DNA of 64,000 nt, from assembly GCA_037445065.1 (NCBI GenBank), contig JBBILD010000007.1:1-64000 (forward strand), given 5' to 3'. Under the pieces are notes generated by a model. The model saw only the letters and a list, made by a program, of their open reading frames with translations, ran no database searches and was not told the DNA's origin. This DNA comes from Myxococcales bacterium. GTDB taxonomy: Bacteria; Desulfobacterota; Binatia; HRBIN30. The translations under genes were made by a program, and so were the position numbers. Within the stretch, counting starts at the first letter, position 1. Each line of letters starts with the position of its first letter. Below are positions 37,035 through 45,103 of the stretch, piece after piece.

Positions 37035-37078
37035 GCCGGCTCTGGCTCGAAGCCCGCAGCTTTCGTAGAAACAGCACA

Positions 37079-37741
37079 ATGAACCTCGTGCACGCGGCTT
37101 ACGAACCAGAGGGCTCGGGTCCTCATCCCACCATCCTCGCCTTGCACGGTTGGGGTGCGAATGCGCTCGACTTGCTCGGCCTCGCACCCCACTTGTGCAA
37201 CGGGCGCTGGCTCGTGCTCTGCCCACAGGGGCCGATCGCGGTTCCGCTCGGGGCGATGGGAACCGGCTGGGGCTGGTTTCCGCTCACCCTCGGCCAGCCG
37301 CCGGATCCGGCTGCCTTTCGTGCCGCAGTCGCTGCGGTGCAAGCCTTCCTCGATGCAGCCGAGGAGCGCTACCCGATCCAGAAAAACAAAGTCGTGTTGC
37401 TCGGCTTCAGCCAAGGAGGAGTGGTCGCGTACGCGCTCGCATTGTCCGAGCCAGAGCGCTTCGCCGGACTTGCTGCCCTCAGCTCCTGGCTCCCGGCGGC
37501 GGTGGTTGAGGCGCTTCCCGCGCGCGATCGCTCCCAACTCACCACGTTGGTGCAGCACGGCACCGGCGACGATTTGATCTCGGTGTCGCGGGCCCGCGAG
37601 TCGCTCGAGCGGCTGCGTTCCCTGCGCGTGCCGGTCACCTACCGCGAATACGACATGGGCCACGAAATTACGGGAGAGAGCGTGCGCGACCTCTCGACGT
37701 GGCTCGAACGCAGTGTGCTGTCCCCCATCATCACCTTGTAG
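37079..37741 (+). CDS. Phospholipase/carboxylesterase (alpha/beta hydrolase)
   Basis: LHGWGAN, GFSQGG nucleophile elbow, HGTGDD, MGHEI. Confidence 0.92.
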   Translation: MNLVHAAYEPEGSGPHPTILALHGWGANALDLLGLAPHLCNGRWLVLCPQGPIAVPLGAMGTGWGWFPLTLGQPPDPAAFRAAVAAVQAFLDAAEERYPIQKNKVVLLGFSQGGVVAYALALSEPERFAGLAALSSWLPAAVVEALPARDRSQLTTLVQHGTGDDLISVSRARESLERLRSLRVPVTYREYDMGHEITGESVRDLSTWLERSVLSPIITL

Positions 37742-37811
37742 GGGACGCGATTGCAGCTCGGGGCTGCTCGGCTGCGCCTGCCGCAGCCCCGCGGGGCTGG
37801 TGCGGTGAGGT

Positions 37812-37854
37812 CCAAAACGAGCGGGGCCTTCCTGCGCTCCAGGAAGGCCCCGCT
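37812..37854 (-). terminator. Intrinsic terminator hairpin (minus strand, possibly bidirectional)
   Basis: Perfect 15-bp stem AGCGGGGCCTTCCTG (37820-37834) / CAGGAAGGCCCCGCT (37840-37854), followed on the minus strand by CGTTTTGG; lies between convergent genes. Confidence 0.8.
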
Positions 37855-37927
37855 GTGAGCCGAAGCTCGGGTCTGAGTCGAGGAAAAACCGGAAAACGTA
37901 CCTACGAAAACGACCTCTACGTCGCGG

Positions 37928-38005
37928 TTACTTCTTCTTCTTCGGTGCCGCTTTCTTCTTCGCTGGGGCTTTCTTCTTTGCCTTGCTGCTCTTGGTTGTT
38001 GCCAT
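37928..38005 (-). CDS. 25-aa lysine-rich histone-H1-like microprotein MATTKSSKAKKKAPAKKKAAPKKKK
   Basis: Below ORF-track cutoff; strong SD AAGGAGGT 4 nt before ATG; 12 Lys, no acidic residues; own promoter-like site and terminator. Confidence 0.75.
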   Translation of the reverse strand: MATTKSSKAKKKAPAKKKAAPKKKK

Positions 38006-38108
38006 AGCGACCTCCTTGTCACTCTTGGGAGTGTTGTGGTTGTCCCTCACTCCCTCGACTCAGACCCGTACCGCGACCTCCTCCTCACCTCCACCACTCA
38101 CGCCCGCG

Positions 38109-38171
38109 CTTATATTCAGGTCCTTTGTCAAAAGTCAAGAGGAGAATACCATTTTAGAAAAATTTTTTTAA
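38109..38171 (-). promoter_or_regulatory. Putative sigma70 promoter with AT-rich upstream element for the microprotein transcript
   Basis: Minus strand TTGACT (38138-38133)-N18-TATAAG (38114-38109); AT tract TTTTAGAAAAATTTTTTTAAA at about 38152-38172, unusual for this GC-rich window. Confidence 0.55.
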
Positions 38172-38486
38172 ACCGTTCCGTATCGGAATTTCGATGGGTT
38201 ACGCCGGCATAAAATCGCGTTCCCCGATCTTGAGGCCGATTCTTAGGCGATTGTTTTAGAGGGTTGTCCACAGCCGCGGGGAGGACTACGGACAGGGCTC
38301 GAGGGAGACTGTTGCGGGCGAGCTGTTAAAGTTGCGGATGCATCTGCAACGCTCCGCGTCCGTGGCCTACAGGCGCTTATCTACCCTCGCCGCACAGCCG
38401 TTTGGATCCACCTACACGCAGCGCCCGTACAGTCGGGAAAGACGCTGCTATGCAGGCCGTTTCTTTGCGGGCGGGGGCTCCACCCT

Positions 38487-40169
<1,683 letters not shown>

Positions 40170-40221
40170 TCTCGCCTTTGCCGTTGCGCGTGCGCCGGCA
40201 AGCTTTTACGATCGAGCAACC

Positions 40222-41340
40222 ATGCTCGCCTGGGAACGCTTGCGACAAGTACGCGAGGAACTGTCGCAGTTGTTTGTGGAGCGGGCAGAAGTCATTGACG
40301 GCGCGCTCTGCTGCCTGCTTGCCCGCCAGCACCTCCTGTTGATCGGCCCTCCTGGCACGGCCAAGTCCATGCTCGCCGAGGAGCTGTGCGCGCGCATCGA
40401 AGGGGCGCGCTACTTCTCGTGGCTGCTGACCAAGTTCACCACGCCCGAGGAACTGTTCGGTGCGATCTCGCTGGCGGCACTCGAGCAGGACGAGTACCGG
40501 CGGGTCACCACGCACAAACTACCCGAAGCGCACATTGCGTTTCTCGACGAGGTGTTCAAAGCGAACTCCTCCATCCTGAACGCTTTGCTGGCGGTGATGA
40601 ACGAGCGCCGCTTCCACAACGGCAAGGAAATCCAGAGTGTACCGCTCATGACGCTTTTCGGGGCCAGCAACGAACTGCCGGAAGACGACGAACTGCAAGC
40701 CCTCTACGATCGCTTCCTCGTGCGCTTCGTGGTGGGATACATCGAAGAGGACTTCCATTTCTTGCGCATGTTGCAGGGACGCGCGGCCCCTACCCGCACC
40801 GTGCTGCCCATGGAGCTGCTCCAGGAACTGCAAGCAGCCACCGCGCAAATCGAGATCCCACAGGGGATCTACCGCTCGATCGCCGAACTGCGCCGCGCTC
40901 TGCAGCAAAAGGCCCTGGTTTCCTCCGACCGCCGCTACCGCCAAGCGATGGGGTTGCTGCAGGCACACGCGCTCTTGCGCGGTGCCCGCTGCGTGGAAGA
41001 GGACGATGTATTCTTTCTCGAGCATGTGCTGTGGCGCATCCCAGCGCAGCGGGCCGACGTGCGGGCACTGATTCGCGAACTCTTGCGCGGCTACGAAGAG
41101 GAGGCCAAGGCGCTCCTGTTCCGCAGCCAAGAACTGCACGAATACGCCAGCCGCCCGTGGGACAACGGCGAACAGCGCAGCCGCGCGGTGCTCGAGGCAC
41201 ACACCAAAATCCACCAGATCTTACAGCAACTGGCCCAGCTCATTGCCGAGGCGCGCGAGCGCGGGCGGCCGGTGGAAACCGTCGAAGCGGTGCGCGCGCA
41301 AGTGGAGCAAATCCAGCAACGCATGCTCGAGACCTTGTAG
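40222..41340 (+). CDS. MoxR-family AAA+ ATPase (RavA-like)
   Basis: GPPGTAKS, LLTKFTTPEELFG, FLDEVFKANSSILNALL, ASNELP, ALYDRF, SDRR. Confidence 0.92.
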   Translation: MLAWERLRQVREELSQLFVERAEVIDGALCCLLARQHLLLIGPPGTAKSMLAEELCARIEGARYFSWLLTKFTTPEELFGAISLAALEQDEYRRVTTHKLPEAHIAFLDEVFKANSSILNALLAVMNERRFHNGKEIQSVPLMTLFGASNELPEDDELQALYDRFLVRFVVGYIEEDFHFLRMLQGRAAPTRTVLPMELLQELQAATAQIEIPQGIYRSIAELRRALQQKALVSSDRRYRQAMGLLQAHALLRGARCVEEDDVFFLEHVLWRIPAQRADVRALIRELLRGYEEEAKALLFRSQELHEYASRPWDNGEQRSRAVLEAHTKIHQILQQLAQLIAEARERGRPVETVEAVRAQVEQIQQRMLETL

Positions 41341-41348
41341 GAGACACG

Positions 41349-42929
41349 GTGGCAACCCGGAGCCGGAGCCGCGCGGAGCTGGCGCGCGTCGAGATCAGCC
41401 AAGCGAGCGCAGCGCTCGACCAACGCAGCCCGTCGTGGATCGAGACCGATGCTTTCGACCGGGACGCATTTCGCAAGTGGAGCGAGGCGTCTCCCTCGTT
41501 CCATGACCTTTCCAGCCACGCGGGTCGCCTCTTGCCTCATTTCGACGCCTTCCTGCTCGACTTGTACGCCTTGCTCTACAAGCTTAACGTCTCGTTCCGT
41601 CCTGCCGAAGCGGTGCTGCCCAGTGCAGCGCTCTACGGCCCACTGCTGCGCGCCATTGCCGGCACGCCTGCCCTCGAGTTGCTGCGGCTGCAGACCGCGC
41701 TGGATGAAGCCCGCGCCGCCATTGGCGCGCTCCTCTTGGGAGAAAAGATCCTCGCCGTTCTCAAGGAAGAGTGGCTGCTGAACCGCGGGCAGATGCTCGA
41801 CGCCTGGGGCCTCAAGCAGCAAGAGGAAGAACTCATGCGCCTCTGGCAGCAAGCACGCGCGGTGGCGACGCTGGCCGACGAATCGCCGCGGCCTTCGCTC
41901 GTTCATCTTGCGCGCCGCCTGCACCAAGAAGCAGAACTCGCCGAGCGGCGCCTGTCCCAGCGGCTGGAAGATGTACAGCGGCCAGTGCGGGAAAATATCG
42001 AGCGGCAGACGGCGCGCTTGCAAAGCGAAATTGCGCAAGGCTGCACTGCGCTAGAAGACTTCGAAGCCGCTGCGCACGAATGGGACACGGGTGTGGGGCA
42101 CGAAGCCTACCGCTCGCCTGCCCTACAAGTTGAGTTCGGCAAGCGGCTCGCGCAAAACCCGCGCCTGCGCAAACTCGCCAACCTGGTGGGGCGCATGCGT
42201 GCCCACGCGCGTGCCCTGCGGCAAAAGGCTTTGGAGCGCTGCAACGAGGAGATGTACTCGGTCGGCACCGGCGCCGACTTGGGGCGCATTCTCCCCTGCG
42301 AGCTGGCAGCGTTGCGCCATCCCCTGCGGCGGCGGGACTTTGCCCGCCGCCTGCTGGAGGGAACCCTCCTCCAATACGAACTCCGCGGCCAAGAGGAAGC
42401 CGGCCGCGGCCCTCTGATCGTTTGCCTCGATGTGAGCTCCTCCATGTCGGGGGACAAGGACGTGTGGGCCAAAGCCGTAGCTCTCACCTTGCTCGACATC
42501 GCCCAACGCCAGCGCCGGCTTCTGCACGCGATCTGCTTTGCGGGACCGGACACCCCGCTCTACGAATCGGATCTCAATTACGGGCAGCGTTACAGCAGCG
42601 ACCCGCAGGAAGTTTTGCGTTTGGCCAGTTACTTCCCCGGCGGTGGCACGGATTTTCGCCGTCCGCTCGAAGCGGCCCTGCACCGTTTGCAGCAAAAACC
42701 GCTGCGCAAAAGCGACGTAGTGCTCATTACCGACGGCGAGTGTACCCTCGAACCCGGCTGGACCGAGCAGTTCCTCGAGCACAAAAGACGCCTCGGCTTT
42801 CGCCTGTACTCCGTGCTGATCGATATTGGCAGCGCCACCACTCACTCCTTGCGCCAGATCAGCGACCGCGTCGCCAGCGTGCGCCAGCTCACTTGCGAGG
42901 CAGGGAGCGACTTGTTCTTGGCGCTTTGA
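41349..42929 (+). CDS. VWA-domain protein (ViaA-like partner of the AAA+ ATPase)
   Basis: GTG start after SD AGGAG; LGRILPCEL, GPLIVCLDVSSSM (MIDAS), GGTDF, VLITDGE. Confidence 0.88.
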   Translation: MATRSRSRAELARVEISQASAALDQRSPSWIETDAFDRDAFRKWSEASPSFHDLSSHAGRLLPHFDAFLLDLYALLYKLNVSFRPAEAVLPSAALYGPLLRAIAGTPALELLRLQTALDEARAAIGALLLGEKILAVLKEEWLLNRGQMLDAWGLKQQEEELMRLWQQARAVATLADESPRPSLVHLARRLHQEAELAERRLSQRLEDVQRPVRENIERQTARLQSEIAQGCTALEDFEAAAHEWDTGVGHEAYRSPALQVEFGKRLAQNPRLRKLANLVGRMRAHARALRQKALERCNEEMYSVGTGADLGRILPCELAALRHPLRRRDFARRLLEGTLLQYELRGQEEAGRGPLIVCLDVSSSMSGDKDVWAKAVALTLLDIAQRQRRLLHAICFAGPDTPLYESDLNYGQRYSSDPQEVLRLASYFPGGGTDFRRPLEAALHRLQQKPLRKSDVVLITDGECTLEPGWTEQFLEHKRRLGFRLYSVLIDIGSATTHSLRQISDRVASVRQLTCEAGSDLFLAL

Positions 42930-42951
42930 AGCGGCCAGGCAAGGCGCGCCC

Positions 42952-44508
42952 TCAGCCGCCGCTCGCGCGAAGCGGCGCGGGCACGGGCTCCGGCAATTCA
43001 GGGAGCTCGCGCAAGAGCCGCTCGAGCCGCCGAGAAGTGTCGCGCATGTACTCGTAGAGGTGTTTGTGCAACAGCGCGAAAGTCACCGCGTCCCGAAACG
43101 CCGCCGGACGGCGCAGGAGTGTTTCGATGAGCAACGACAGCGTCATCCACGAGCGGCGCGGCGAGGCCTTGAGCACGCAGTGCCACAGCACCCGAGCGAA
43201 AATGGCGAGGTCCTGCGCCGATGTGACCAGGCGGCGTTCGACCAGTTTGCCGCGGTTCAAGATGAAGTCCATCACCCGCCTCCGGTAGCTGCGGTAGCTG
43301 TACAAGCGCTCGAGCAAGCTGCGATACCCGCGATAGAGGTCTGCCAGGCTCATCCCCGCCGGAACAATGTTGGTGAACACGAACTGATCCCCGACCGATT
43401 CCGCCACCAAACGCCCAGCCCGTTTGAGCCGCTCATAGAGCGGTGTTTTCGGCACCGCGTTCAGCATCCCGGTCATGGACACCGGAATCCGAGCCTGCTG
43501 GATGAATTGGTACTGCTCTTCGAAAATGCTCGGGTCGTCGTGATCGAAACCCACGATCATGCCGGCCATGACTTCGATGCCAGCACGCTGGATGCGGTGC
43601 ACGGCGTCGAGCAGGTTGCCGCGCAGGTTCTGCGTTTTGTGCGTCTCTTGCAGACTGGCCGCGCGCGGCGTCTCGATGCCGATAAAGATGGTGGTGAAAT
43701 TCGCTTGCCGCATGAGATCGAGCAATTCGTCGTCCTGCGCAACGTTGAGACTCACCTCCGTCATCATCTCGATCGGATAGTCGTTCTCCCGCTGCCATGC
43801 CGCGATGGCGCGCAGCAACTCTTTGGCTTCGCGCTTGTTGCCGATGAAGTTGTCGTCCACCACGAAGATGTTCCGCACTCCCAAGCGGTGGATCTCACGG
43901 ACTTCGGCCATGACTTGCTCCACGCTCTTGGTGCGCGGGCGCCGGCCGTACATGACGATGATGTCGCAAAACTCGCAGTTGAAGGGGCAGCCGCGGGCAA
44001 ACTGGATGGTCATGGTGCGGTAGCGATCGATCTTGAGAAGGTCGAAGCGAGGCAGGGGCGAGTCGCGCATGTCCGGCTTCTCCACTTGCCGGTACTCCTC
44101 CTTCCACTCGCCGCGCTGATAGTCGGCCAAAAACTGCGGCCAGGTGTACTCGGCCTCGTCAATGAAAATTACATCCACCTTCCCGCGCAGTTCCTCCGGA
44201 CAAAGCGAGGCAAACGGGCCCCCGACCACCACGAATTTGCCACGACGGCGAAACTCGGCCGCCAATTCGAAGATGCGCTGCTTGTGGACGACGTAGCCAG
44301 TGAGGCCGACAATGTCGGCGTCGGTATCGAAGTCTACCTCCTCTACGTTCTCATCGCACAGCACCACTTCGTGCTCGGGGGGCGTGATGCCGGCAACGGT
44401 GGGCAGGGAGAGATTGGGAAATACGCACTTCTTGCCCAAGGCGGGAAGGATGCGGTCGAAGGTCCAAAACGACTCCGGGTTCTTGGGCGCGATCAGGTAA
44501 ATCTTCAT
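42952..44508 (-). CDS. Cobalamin-binding radical SAM protein (DUF4070/HpnP-related clade)
   Basis: N-terminal B12-binding domain (VVGGPFAS), RGCPFNCEFCDI, VVDDNFIGN, GIETP, IVGFDHD. Confidence 0.9.
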   Translation of the reverse strand: MKIYLIAPKNPESFWTFDRILPALGKKCVFPNLSLPTVAGITPPEHEVVLCDENVEEVDFDTDADIVGLTGYVVHKQRIFELAAEFRRRGKFVVVGGPFASLCPEELRGKVDVIFIDEAEYTWPQFLADYQRGEWKEEYRQVEKPDMRDSPLPRFDLLKIDRYRTMTIQFARGCPFNCEFCDIIVMYGRRPRTKSVEQVMAEVREIHRLGVRNIFVVDDNFIGNKREAKELLRAIAAWQRENDYPIEMMTEVSLNVAQDDELLDLMRQANFTTIFIGIETPRAASLQETHKTQNLRGNLLDAVHRIQRAGIEVMAGMIVGFDHDDPSIFEEQYQFIQQARIPVSMTGMLNAVPKTPLYERLKRAGRLVAESVGDQFVFTNIVPAGMSLADLYRGYRSLLERLYSYRSYRRRVMDFILNRGKLVERRLVTSAQDLAIFARVLWHCVLKASPRRSWMTLSLLIETLLRRPAAFRDAVTFALLHKHLYEYMRDTSRRLERLLRELPELPEPVPAPLRASGG

Positions 44509-44605
44509 ACCCTCGTCTCCTTCGCTGGCGTCCGAAAATGGGCTCCTTTGTACCCTACGGTTGCGAGCACGCCAAGCCGCTCGAAAGGTTTCTCTGCGCG
44601 CAAGC

Positions 44606-45103
44606 TCAGCCTCGCGCCGCACGTGCGATTGCGGCGCGCGCCAGCGCATCGCAACGTTCGTTCTCAGGATGGCCAGCGTGGGCGCGCAGCCAGTGCCAGT
44701 GCACCTCGTGGGTCTGACTCAAGCGGTCGAGCTCGCGCCACAAATCCGCGTTCTTCACAGCCTTGCGCCCCGCGGTGCGCCAGCCGTTGGCTTTCCAGCG
44801 CGGCAGCCACTCTGTCATCCCGCGCCGCAAGTACTCGGAGTCCGTGTACACGTGCACGCGGCACCTTCGCCGCAAGTGGCGCAGGGCTTCCACCGCAGCG
44901 CGCAACTCCATGCGGTTGTTGGTGGTCTCGGCCTCCGCACCGCTGATCTCCTTGCGCCGGTCGCCGTGGATCAAAATCGCTGCCCAACCGCCGGGCCCCG
45001 GGTTCCCGCTACACGCGCCGTCGGTGTATACGGTGACCAAAGGCAGCGCTGCTCCCGAGCCTGCTCGCTGCGCGGCTGCCTCGCTGCCCATGCCTGTACT
45101 CAC
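44606..45103 (-). CDS. rnhA: Ribonuclease HI
   Basis: [45 protein letters not shown]. Confidence 0.96.

Follow-up and report, generated by a model that had tools for sequence, protein, structure and literature searches.

We describe a compact unit of about 290 nt on the minus strand of a 64,000-nt stretch of DNA (hereafter the window) from a Myxococcales bacterium that GTDB places in the Binatia (Desulfobacterota; HRBIN30), corresponding to positions 1 to 64,000 of contig JBBILD010000007.1 in assembly GCA_037445065.1. Within this unit, a leader and a trailer that are perfectly complementary over 16 nt bracket a 25-codon open reading frame (ORF) for a lysine-rich peptide, and the resulting helix dominates the thermodynamics of the predicted RNA fold. 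Our preferred reading, which leans on fold modelling and to which we give somewhat less than an even chance, is that the unit may be an mRNA for a polycationic micro-peptide in which an end-to-end clamp controls the access of ribonucleases. The evidence that the unit is biologically real comes from a single sequence and the signals in it.

The minus strand of 37600-38400 was read directly for signals and coordinates. Promoter-like hexamers, a leader of about 97 nt, a Shine-Dalgarno sequence (SD), the tiny ORF, a trailer and a terminator follow one another in consistent order on this strand, each where a sequence-only reading of the window had placed it. From 5′ to 3′ along the minus strand, the features are:

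38149 to 38172, minus strand: A/T-rich tract, TTTAAAAAAATTTTTCTAAAATGG, upstream of the -35 hexamer
38109 to 38138, minus strand: promoter-like site, with -35 hexamer TTGACT (38138-38133), 18-nt spacer and -10 hexamer TATAAG (38114-38109)
38070 to 38102, minus strand: 5′ end of the putative leader, G-rich and C-poor (19 G and 3 C in 33 nt)
38053 to 38068, minus strand: 5′ arm of the long-range helix, CGGGUCUGAGUCGAGG in RNA, from the inverted-repeat search
38027 to 38054, minus strand: 7-bp leader hairpin, GGGAGUG/CACUCCC (38054-38048 / 38033-38027), with a 14-nt loop, AGGGACAACCACAA
38006 to 38022, minus strand: ribosome-binding region, AAGGAGG (38017-38011), then five bases before the ATG at 38005
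37928 to 38005, minus strand: small ORF of 25 codons plus TAA, MATTKSSKAKKKAPAKKKAAPKKKK
37884 to 37927, minus strand: trailer of 44 nt with U-rich tracts (GUUUUCG, GUUUUCCGGUUUUU)
37868 to 37883, minus strand: 3′ arm of the long-range helix, CCUCGACUCAGACCCG, beginning 44 nt past the stop codon
37857 to 37868, minus strand: GAGC-UUCG-GCUC sequence with a cUUCGg tetraloop, one G in common with the 3′ arm
37812 to 37854, minus strand: intrinsic terminator, a 15-bp perfect stem (37854-37840/37834-37820) with loop GAGCG, then CGUUUUGG

A repeat finder recovered the leader/trailer complementarity that had been claimed for this locus: 37868-37883 and 38053-38068 form an inverted repeat of 16 nt, 100% complementary, with 169 nt between the arms and the 3′ arm ending 13 nt ahead of the terminator stem. 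The window has no other perfect inverted repeat of at least 16 bp with a gap of 20-400 nt, and 200 first-order Markov simulations of the window yielded 0.025 such repeats on average. Among 1500 dinucleotide shuffles of the 247-nt unit without its terminator, none attained 16 bp, and the longest repeat reached 13. The same 247-nt unit folds with a z-score of -3.1, which becomes -5.0 when the terminator is included. Random sequence is, however, too generous a null, because Binatia DNA is rich in palindromic repeat elements. The helix is notable for its position, between a promoter-like site and a terminator and bracketing a well-signalled ORF, and not for its length.

The RNA was folded from the inferred start at 38102 to 37812, giving a minimum free energy (MFE) of -124.8 kcal/mol. 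Folding this reverse-complement sequence showed that the long helix dominates the predicted structure, with 14 pairs at a probability of 0.94-1.0. The last two pairs are weak (0.45 and 0.31) because the 7-bp leader hairpin competes for them. This hairpin, which had rightly been described as abutting the helix, adjoins it so closely that two G are common to both, and in the predicted fold it stacks upon it. When the 3′ arm is barred from pairing, the MFE rises from -124.8 to -100.4 kcal/mol, a cost of 24.4 kcal/mol. The arm duplex alone amounts to -33.0 kcal/mol, and with its flanking pairs the helix comprises 16+3+5 bp separated by two 1-nt internal loops, at -42.9 kcal/mol. Of the 89 pairs in the MFE structure, 8 are G-U, and the minus strand folds more stably than the plus strand by 10-13 kcal/mol. 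Elsewhere in this structure, the 5′ bases of the transcript, GUGAGU, are matched to GCUCAC immediately ahead of the terminator, and the second half of the ORF, which is rich in AAG, pairs with the U-rich tracts of the trailer. The GAGC-UUCG-GCUC sequence is present as the sequence-only reading had it, but the hairpin that it was thought to form lies outside the MFE structure: forcing it costs 4.8 kcal/mol (-120.0 vs -124.8), because its 3′ half prefers pairing with the first transcript bases.

The interior of the helix folds as a five-branch multiloop, not as a rod, and the ribosome-binding site is predicted to lie open within it. AAGGAG occupies the 6-nt loop of a small hairpin, with a predicted unpaired probability of 0.75-1.0, while 48 nt separate the 5′ arm from the AUG and 44 nt separate the stop codon from the 3′ arm. 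Because the SD lies in a loop and both arms are 44-48 nt away from the ORF, translation and the clamp seem compatible, which sets this pairing apart from that in hok and aapA mRNAs. In the modelled structure, the clamp leaves the ribosome-binding site exposed, and translating ribosomes would not need to open it. Two hairpin loops 31 nt apart on the minus strand display GGA motifs, namely ACAAGGAG at the SD (38014-38020) and AGGGACA in the leader hairpin (38041-38047), an arrangement that presumably resembles paired CsrA-type binding sites.

Such an architecture has precedents in well-studied bacteria. In the hbs mRNA of Bacillus subtilis, 14 nt that closely follow a leader hairpin can pair in full with a segment immediately ahead of the terminator, with a pairing energy of -19 kcal/mol (PMC5737220). 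Compensatory mutations show that this pairing occurs in vivo and restricts RNase Y cleavage in the leader, and a strong SD loads protective ribosomes (PMC5737220). The hbs mRNA and the present unit resemble each other in being monocistronic (here by prediction), in specifying a small basic product, in having a structured leader, and in carrying a strong SD outside the pairing. The complementary segments likewise sit beside the leader hairpin and just upstream of the terminator, and measure 14 nt in hbs and 16 nt here. Thus, complementary segments of at least about 14 nt occupy the positions that an hbs-type mRNA demands, matching at 16 of 16 nt, and the strong SD (AAGGAGG-N5-ATG) is free by prediction. 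The two differ in that there is no sequence relationship between them, and in that the hbs product is an HU-type protein, whereas the product here would be a 25-residue lysine-rich peptide. The helix here is also stronger than the published value for hbs (-33 vs -19 kcal/mol) and extendable to about 24 bp. Further, the hbs interaction is reported to have been proven by compensatory mutants, whereas the present unit is known from its sequence and predicted fold.

A second precedent is the icaR mRNA of Staphylococcus aureus, in which a motif of the 3′ untranslated region (UTR) prevents initiation by pairing with the SD region, and in which the pairing of the 5′ and 3′ UTRs creates a substrate for ribonuclease III (RNase III) (PMC3868564). 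In that mRNA the SD takes part in the pairing; here it lies outside the helix and is predicted to be free. The sequence-only reading had regarded the architecture as one of an unrecognised kind. With the published cases of hbs (PMC5737220) and icaR (PMC3868564) preceding it, the architecture is already known, and the unit is a further instance of it and not an unrecognised class.

Under the clamped-mRNA reading, a monocistronic mRNA of about 290 nt, probably strongly expressed, would encode the 25-residue polycationic peptide, and its UTRs would pair over 14-16 perfect bp, extendable to about 24, into a panhandle. The arms would be out of reach for an initiating or terminating ribosome, with the ribosome-binding site held in the loop, and a free ribosome-binding site together with distant arms would make ribonuclease access to both ends during translation the likely object of control. 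The clamp might stabilise the message or set a trimming point, in the manner of the 14-nt hbs interaction. The leader also contains a direct repeat, GUGAGGAGGAGGUCGC (38088-38073), that is an 88% match to the true ribosome-binding region, GUGACAAGGAGGUCGC (38022-38007). If it acted like 5′ stabiliser SD elements, this second SD-like sequence could retain a 30S subunit near the 5′ end of the message. The first 33 or so nucleotides of the inferred transcript have GG runs spaced 1-3 nt apart (GGUGGAGGUGAGGAGGAGG), and this G-rich leader end could form a two-tier G-quadruplex or serve as an SD-like landing or stabiliser site for the 30S subunit. If the clamp acts on decay at all, it would do so in a transcript that we infer from the promoter-like site and in a helix that is predicted to form in vivo.

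The peptide would be strongly basic. Among its 25 residues, 12 are Lys and none past Met1 is acidic or large and hydrophobic; its computed isoelectric point is about 11, its grand average of hydropathy (GRAVY) is -1.61, and it has no hydrophobic stretch. The cationic, non-hydrophobic character that had been ascribed to it thus holds. Lys is encoded by AAG ten times and by AAA twice, the GC content of third codon positions is 0.72 against 0.81 in three neighbouring genes, and an in-frame 18-nt tandem duplication encodes APAKKK / AAPKKK. The start signal is a rare one: AGGAGG followed by ATG or GTG after 4-9 nt occurs at just six sites on both strands of the window (128 kb), and four of these six precede ORFs of 158-785 aa, including that of enolase. 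We guess, with composition as the sole basis, that the charge of the peptide might serve binding to nucleic acid, the ribosome or the nucleoid.

Peptide relatives were sought in several collections. Pfam and NCBIfam gave no match at E≤10, PDB sequences gave none, and none of the seven ORFs overlapping the unit is present in the protein collection. The ESM Atlas gave only unnamed clusters of 22-32 aa (0.92) and the chlamydial Hc2 family (0.82), resemblances that are compositional and serve as a lead only. A literature search on lysine-rich ribosome-associated small proteins returned nothing relevant among the papers listed, judged by titles and the openings of abstracts. Opposite the ORF, on the plus strand at 37983-38171, lies a very hydrophobic 62-aa ORF with a TTG start (MLLLVVAIATSLSLLGVLWLSL...). 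We reject it as an artefact that mirrors the AAG-rich coding; an SD is missing, as are a Pfam match and a record in the protein collection.

The flanking transcription signals are good but imperfect matches. At the A/T-rich tract the GC content dips locally to 0.48-0.50, against 0.65 for the window, and the tract might be read as UP-element-like, on a consensus that we assume. A GC-rich stretch, GCGCGGGCG, follows the promoter-like site, and these signals place a putative transcription start near 38102. The TTGACT/TATAAG pair does not appear in the list of the consensus promoter scan, which requires T as the last base of the -10 hexamer. At the other end, the terminator has its U tract 3′ of the stem on the minus strand only. 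A scan for minus-strand terminator-like sites found none in 37500-38600, and this terminator is absent from its list; the scan needs at least 5 T in the tail, and the tail here has 4. In the 350 nt from the enolase stop to the unit (38140-38490, minus strand), the sole terminator candidate is a weak imperfect palindrome at 38331-38350, and the region 38290-38490 folds with a z-score of -0.8. Enolase transcripts may therefore read into the small unit.

Several observations weigh against reading the unit as a clamped mRNA. The -10 hexamer lacks its usually invariant final T, and the position of the true 5′ end is uncertain because the stretch between enolase and the unit has no clear terminator. 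Longer versions of the ORF did not find relatives either: the 40-aa GTG-extended reading shared words with 49 candidate proteins, none of them at E≤10, and the 30-aa reading had 0 matches at E≤0.001 among 1.84 billion protein representatives. Conservation was then sought in 80 Binatia loci (881,925 bases) anchored on the convergent esterase gene, at 51-67% identity. No lysine-rich small ORF occurs in any of them (0/80), blastn with 37742-38486 returned nothing below E = 0.5, and the arm 16-mer is found 0 times at ≤2 mismatches. The upstream kinase neighbour is kept in only 2 of the 80 loci (L001 and L032 in our numbering), and in these two the DNA downstream of the esterase is unrelated. Nine regions in the 80 loci also combine perfect arms of 16 bp or more with a gap of 100-400 nt, or about 0.65 per 64 kb, so that Binatia DNA carries long perfect inverted repeats at about 25 times the rate of random sequence. 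Finally, all 16 pairs of the helix are Watson-Crick, with no G-U, and a recent event at the DNA level would look alike. Binatia intergenic DNA being rich in long palindromic elements, a DNA-level origin of the repeat is therefore conceivable.

Two of these observations say less than they seem to. Protein libraries rarely contain ORFs of fewer than 30 aa, and the lack of peptide relatives says little because gene callers seldom report ORFs of fewer than 30 codons. Similarly, the absence from the 80 loci shows only loss of synteny at this distance, and is neutral on the conservation of the unit. Enolase is near the esterase in none of the 80, and closer esterase proteins, 77-82% identical, occur in metagenome assemblies. 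Beyond these loci, plasmid and phage collections gave no blastn match to the unit, Rfam assigned it to no known family even at E≤10, and a search for literature on small RNAs in Binatia found none. One literature search on long-range UTR interaction likewise returned no papers.

The DNA-level alternative holds that the inverted repeat has no selected RNA function, and marks palindromic ends like those of miniature inverted-repeat transposable elements (MITEs), an invertible segment, a recent inverted duplication or simple chance. As an invertible segment, it would turn the SD and ORF around with respect to the promoter and so serve as a phase switch. We consider this alternative unlikely, although still a serious candidate. 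The repeat is flawless, without G-U or mismatch, its 201-bp size and GC content of 0.50-0.57 against 0.65 fit small mobile elements, and at 0.025 per 64-kb window one or two such repeats would be expected by chance in a genome of 4-5 Mb. Related Binatia DNA also holds many palindromic elements: the 882 kb of relatives yielded 44 rows of perfect repeats no shorter than 14 bp, among them repeat units of 165-255 bp with 22-50-bp arms, several directly downstream of the same esterase gene, and the nine regions counted above resemble repetitive palindromic elements or arrays. Against this, the repeat is single-copy in the window, where a single further match, with 3 mismatches, does not exceed chance, and its arm is missing at ≤2 mismatches from the same 882 kb. 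The arms (...GGTA / arm ... arm / AGCT...) have no direct repeat or target-site duplication, and they fall neatly between the promoter-like site and the terminator. The interior is a multiloop with a well-formed SD and ORF, not a continuing hairpin, and no recombinase or transposase family was found among the 13 neighbouring genes scanned (30.3-47.8 kb). Were the repeat only a DNA-level element, the finding would be ordinary.

Processing stalks that flank rRNAs are substrates of RNase III, and about two helical turns are the size that this enzyme needs. The helix, at 16+3+5 bp with its two 1-nt internal loops and -42.9 kcal/mol, measures about two turns and stacks on the 7-bp leader hairpin, and it could accordingly be a processing stalk, cut on both strands, that frees a core message for the small ORF from its own transcript or from enolase read-through. 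The 5′ leader and the terminator would be removed, and the cut would mature or destroy the mRNA. The absence of a convincing terminator after enolase would allow a stalk to delimit the unit within a longer transcript, and the icaR UTR duplex is an RNase III substrate (PMC3868564). We find this rather unlikely. The cUUCGg hairpin and the 5′-end pairing compete with extension of the helix, and cleavage is a prediction only. The likeness to rRNA stalks extends to flanking sequences that pair over about two turns, and to an A/T-rich tract, promoter-like site and GC-rich inferred start, but rRNA stalks enclose a structural RNA, whereas this one would enclose a 78-nt ORF, with cleavage a proposal. 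A bolder variant, which strikes us as very improbable, makes the unit a conserved micro-gene specific to its lineage and of a new type, driven by an A/T-rich upstream tract, promoter-like site and GC-rich start that would be rRNA-like, with RNase III excision and possibly joined ends. The micro-mRNA that results would be very stable, with its ends paired, and would encode a polylysine peptide bound to the ribosome or nucleoid. Small ribosome-bound components such as bTHX, bS22 and bL37 would be its models. If the micro-gene reading were true, it would link rRNA-style processing to a protein-coding unit.

Another proposal is that the RNA itself acts, either as a non-coding or as a dual-function molecule, with the ORF incidental or secondary and with the GGA-rich, G-rich leader and the AAG/ARN-rich tract, for example, titrating an RNA-binding protein. 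The 291 nt contain eight GGA motifs, of which two lie in the hairpin loops described above, the 5′ end is very rich in G and poor in C, and the fold is highly stable for its composition. We take some of these motifs to be like those bound by CsrA and Hfq. Nevertheless, the unit matches no Rfam family at E≤10, including 6S RNA, transfer-messenger RNA (tmRNA) and the Csr/Rsm families, no tmRNA is reported by ARAGORN, the interior lacks the rod shape and central bubble of 6S RNA, and the SD-N5-ATG arrangement, in-frame 18-nt duplication and AAG codon bias fit translation; this proposal is improbable. Three more specific candidates were rejected. For tmRNA, ARAGORN found none in 37500-38500 and Rfam no match at E≤10; for 6S RNA, Rfam likewise gave no match at E≤10, and the interior is a five-branch multiloop and not a rod with a central bubble; and a leader-peptide attenuator is excluded by the next gene, the convergent esterase on the plus strand, with no minus-strand gene for several kb.

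The sequence-only reading had drawn its analogy to hok and aapA, type I toxin mRNAs whose 5′-3′ pairing locks the message until 3′ processing. The hok/Sok system is reportedly a type I toxin mRNA under fold-back control. The fold of the full-length aapA1 message hides the SD and hampers translation (PMC5416894). The resemblance to aapA1/IsoA1 and hok/Sok lies in a tiny ORF on a stand-alone, highly folded transcript whose ends interact. These systems involve hydrophobic toxins, a hidden SD and an antisense RNA, none of which is seen here. The SD is predicted to be exposed (0.75-1.0 unpaired), unlike that of aapA1 (PMC5416894), and the peptide is polycationic, with no membrane-spanning stretch. 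Over the transcript there is no antisense promoter-like site, since the sole plus-strand site, 38125-38152, points away (in a consensus scan for canonical promoters only), and Rfam has no toxin-mRNA family that matches. The analogy is consequently not supported, and we regard a type I toxin as very unlikely.

The palindromic elements of related Binatia DNA are of interest in themselves. Five copies of a long-hairpin family of 165-187 nt occur in Binatia metagenome-assembled genomes (L071:1839-2024, L071:5738-5904, L079:6663-6849, L064:2915-3079 and L066:4803-4967). They have a conserved core of about 110 nt in common and match one another at nhmmer E values of 1e-46 to 1e-51, while their outer arms of 24-33 bp, beginning CTAGTG or TAAGTG, are wholly different between copies and perfectly complementary within each. 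A conserved core between arms that vary yet still pair inverts the pattern typical of a MITE. The family has no member in the window by nhmmer and no Rfam family. Other palindromes, with perfect arms of up to 50-52 bp (GCGCCCTTCGACTTCGC...CTCAGGACGAACGG), are found repeatedly and in more than one genome, at L057:6677-6931, L057:10926-11045, L057:925-1041, L066:6673-6792 and L067:1022-1112. Two of these directly follow an esterase stop codon, and the first contains short tandem repeats (CCAACCGGTGAAGAC-like). In a tandem array at L003:7768-8870, perfect inverted repeats of 14-16 bp (TCGCCCCGGAGGGGCG, TGTAGCCCCGGGTG) return about every 428 bp. Further recurring hairpins include AAAGAGTAAACGTGCC, found in L009, twice in L010, and in L022 and L043, and CGTCATTCCCGCGAAAGCGGGAATCCAGG, found in L055, twice in L059 and in L065. 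In 14 of the 80 loci, a TTG ORF of 13-18 codons preceded by GGAGG (LKATRLPLSKRPRWR and variants) recurs on the minus strand at a similar position of about 10.2-11.8 kb (L005:11819, L012:11673, L043:11600), most likely as an alternative frame inside a conserved gene.

In the window, the unit lies between enolase upstream on the same strand (38487-39773, minus) and an Abhydrolase_2 esterase downstream in convergent orientation (37076-37741, plus). Farther neighbours include an FGGY kinase, a 2-hydroxyacid dehydrogenase, a TetR protein, DivIC, a bpMoxR-vWA pair and glycosyltransferases; no RNA-processing protein was found among the scanned neighbouring genes. The bpMoxR-vWA pair (39910-42929, plus) comprises a bpMoxR AAA+ ATPase (PF20030, E = 2e-62) followed by an 847-aa vWA-domain protein, and is typical of MoxR-vWA ternary systems. 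After the vWA gene comes a 706-aa ORF (42826-44946) with no Pfam family.

If our reading of the unit as a clamped mRNA is true, it would provide a clean, minimal case of a 5′/3′-UTR clamp on a bacterial mRNA outside the Firmicutes, in the uncultured Candidatus Binatia. The clamp would surround one of the shortest and most cationic ORFs that can be expected to be expressed. It would extend the principle seen in hbs and icaR and, at about 290 nt, be a compact object on which to test the interplay of end-pairing, ribosome loading and RNases. Further, it would point to a class of peptides, encoded by fewer than 30 codons, that gene callers miss.

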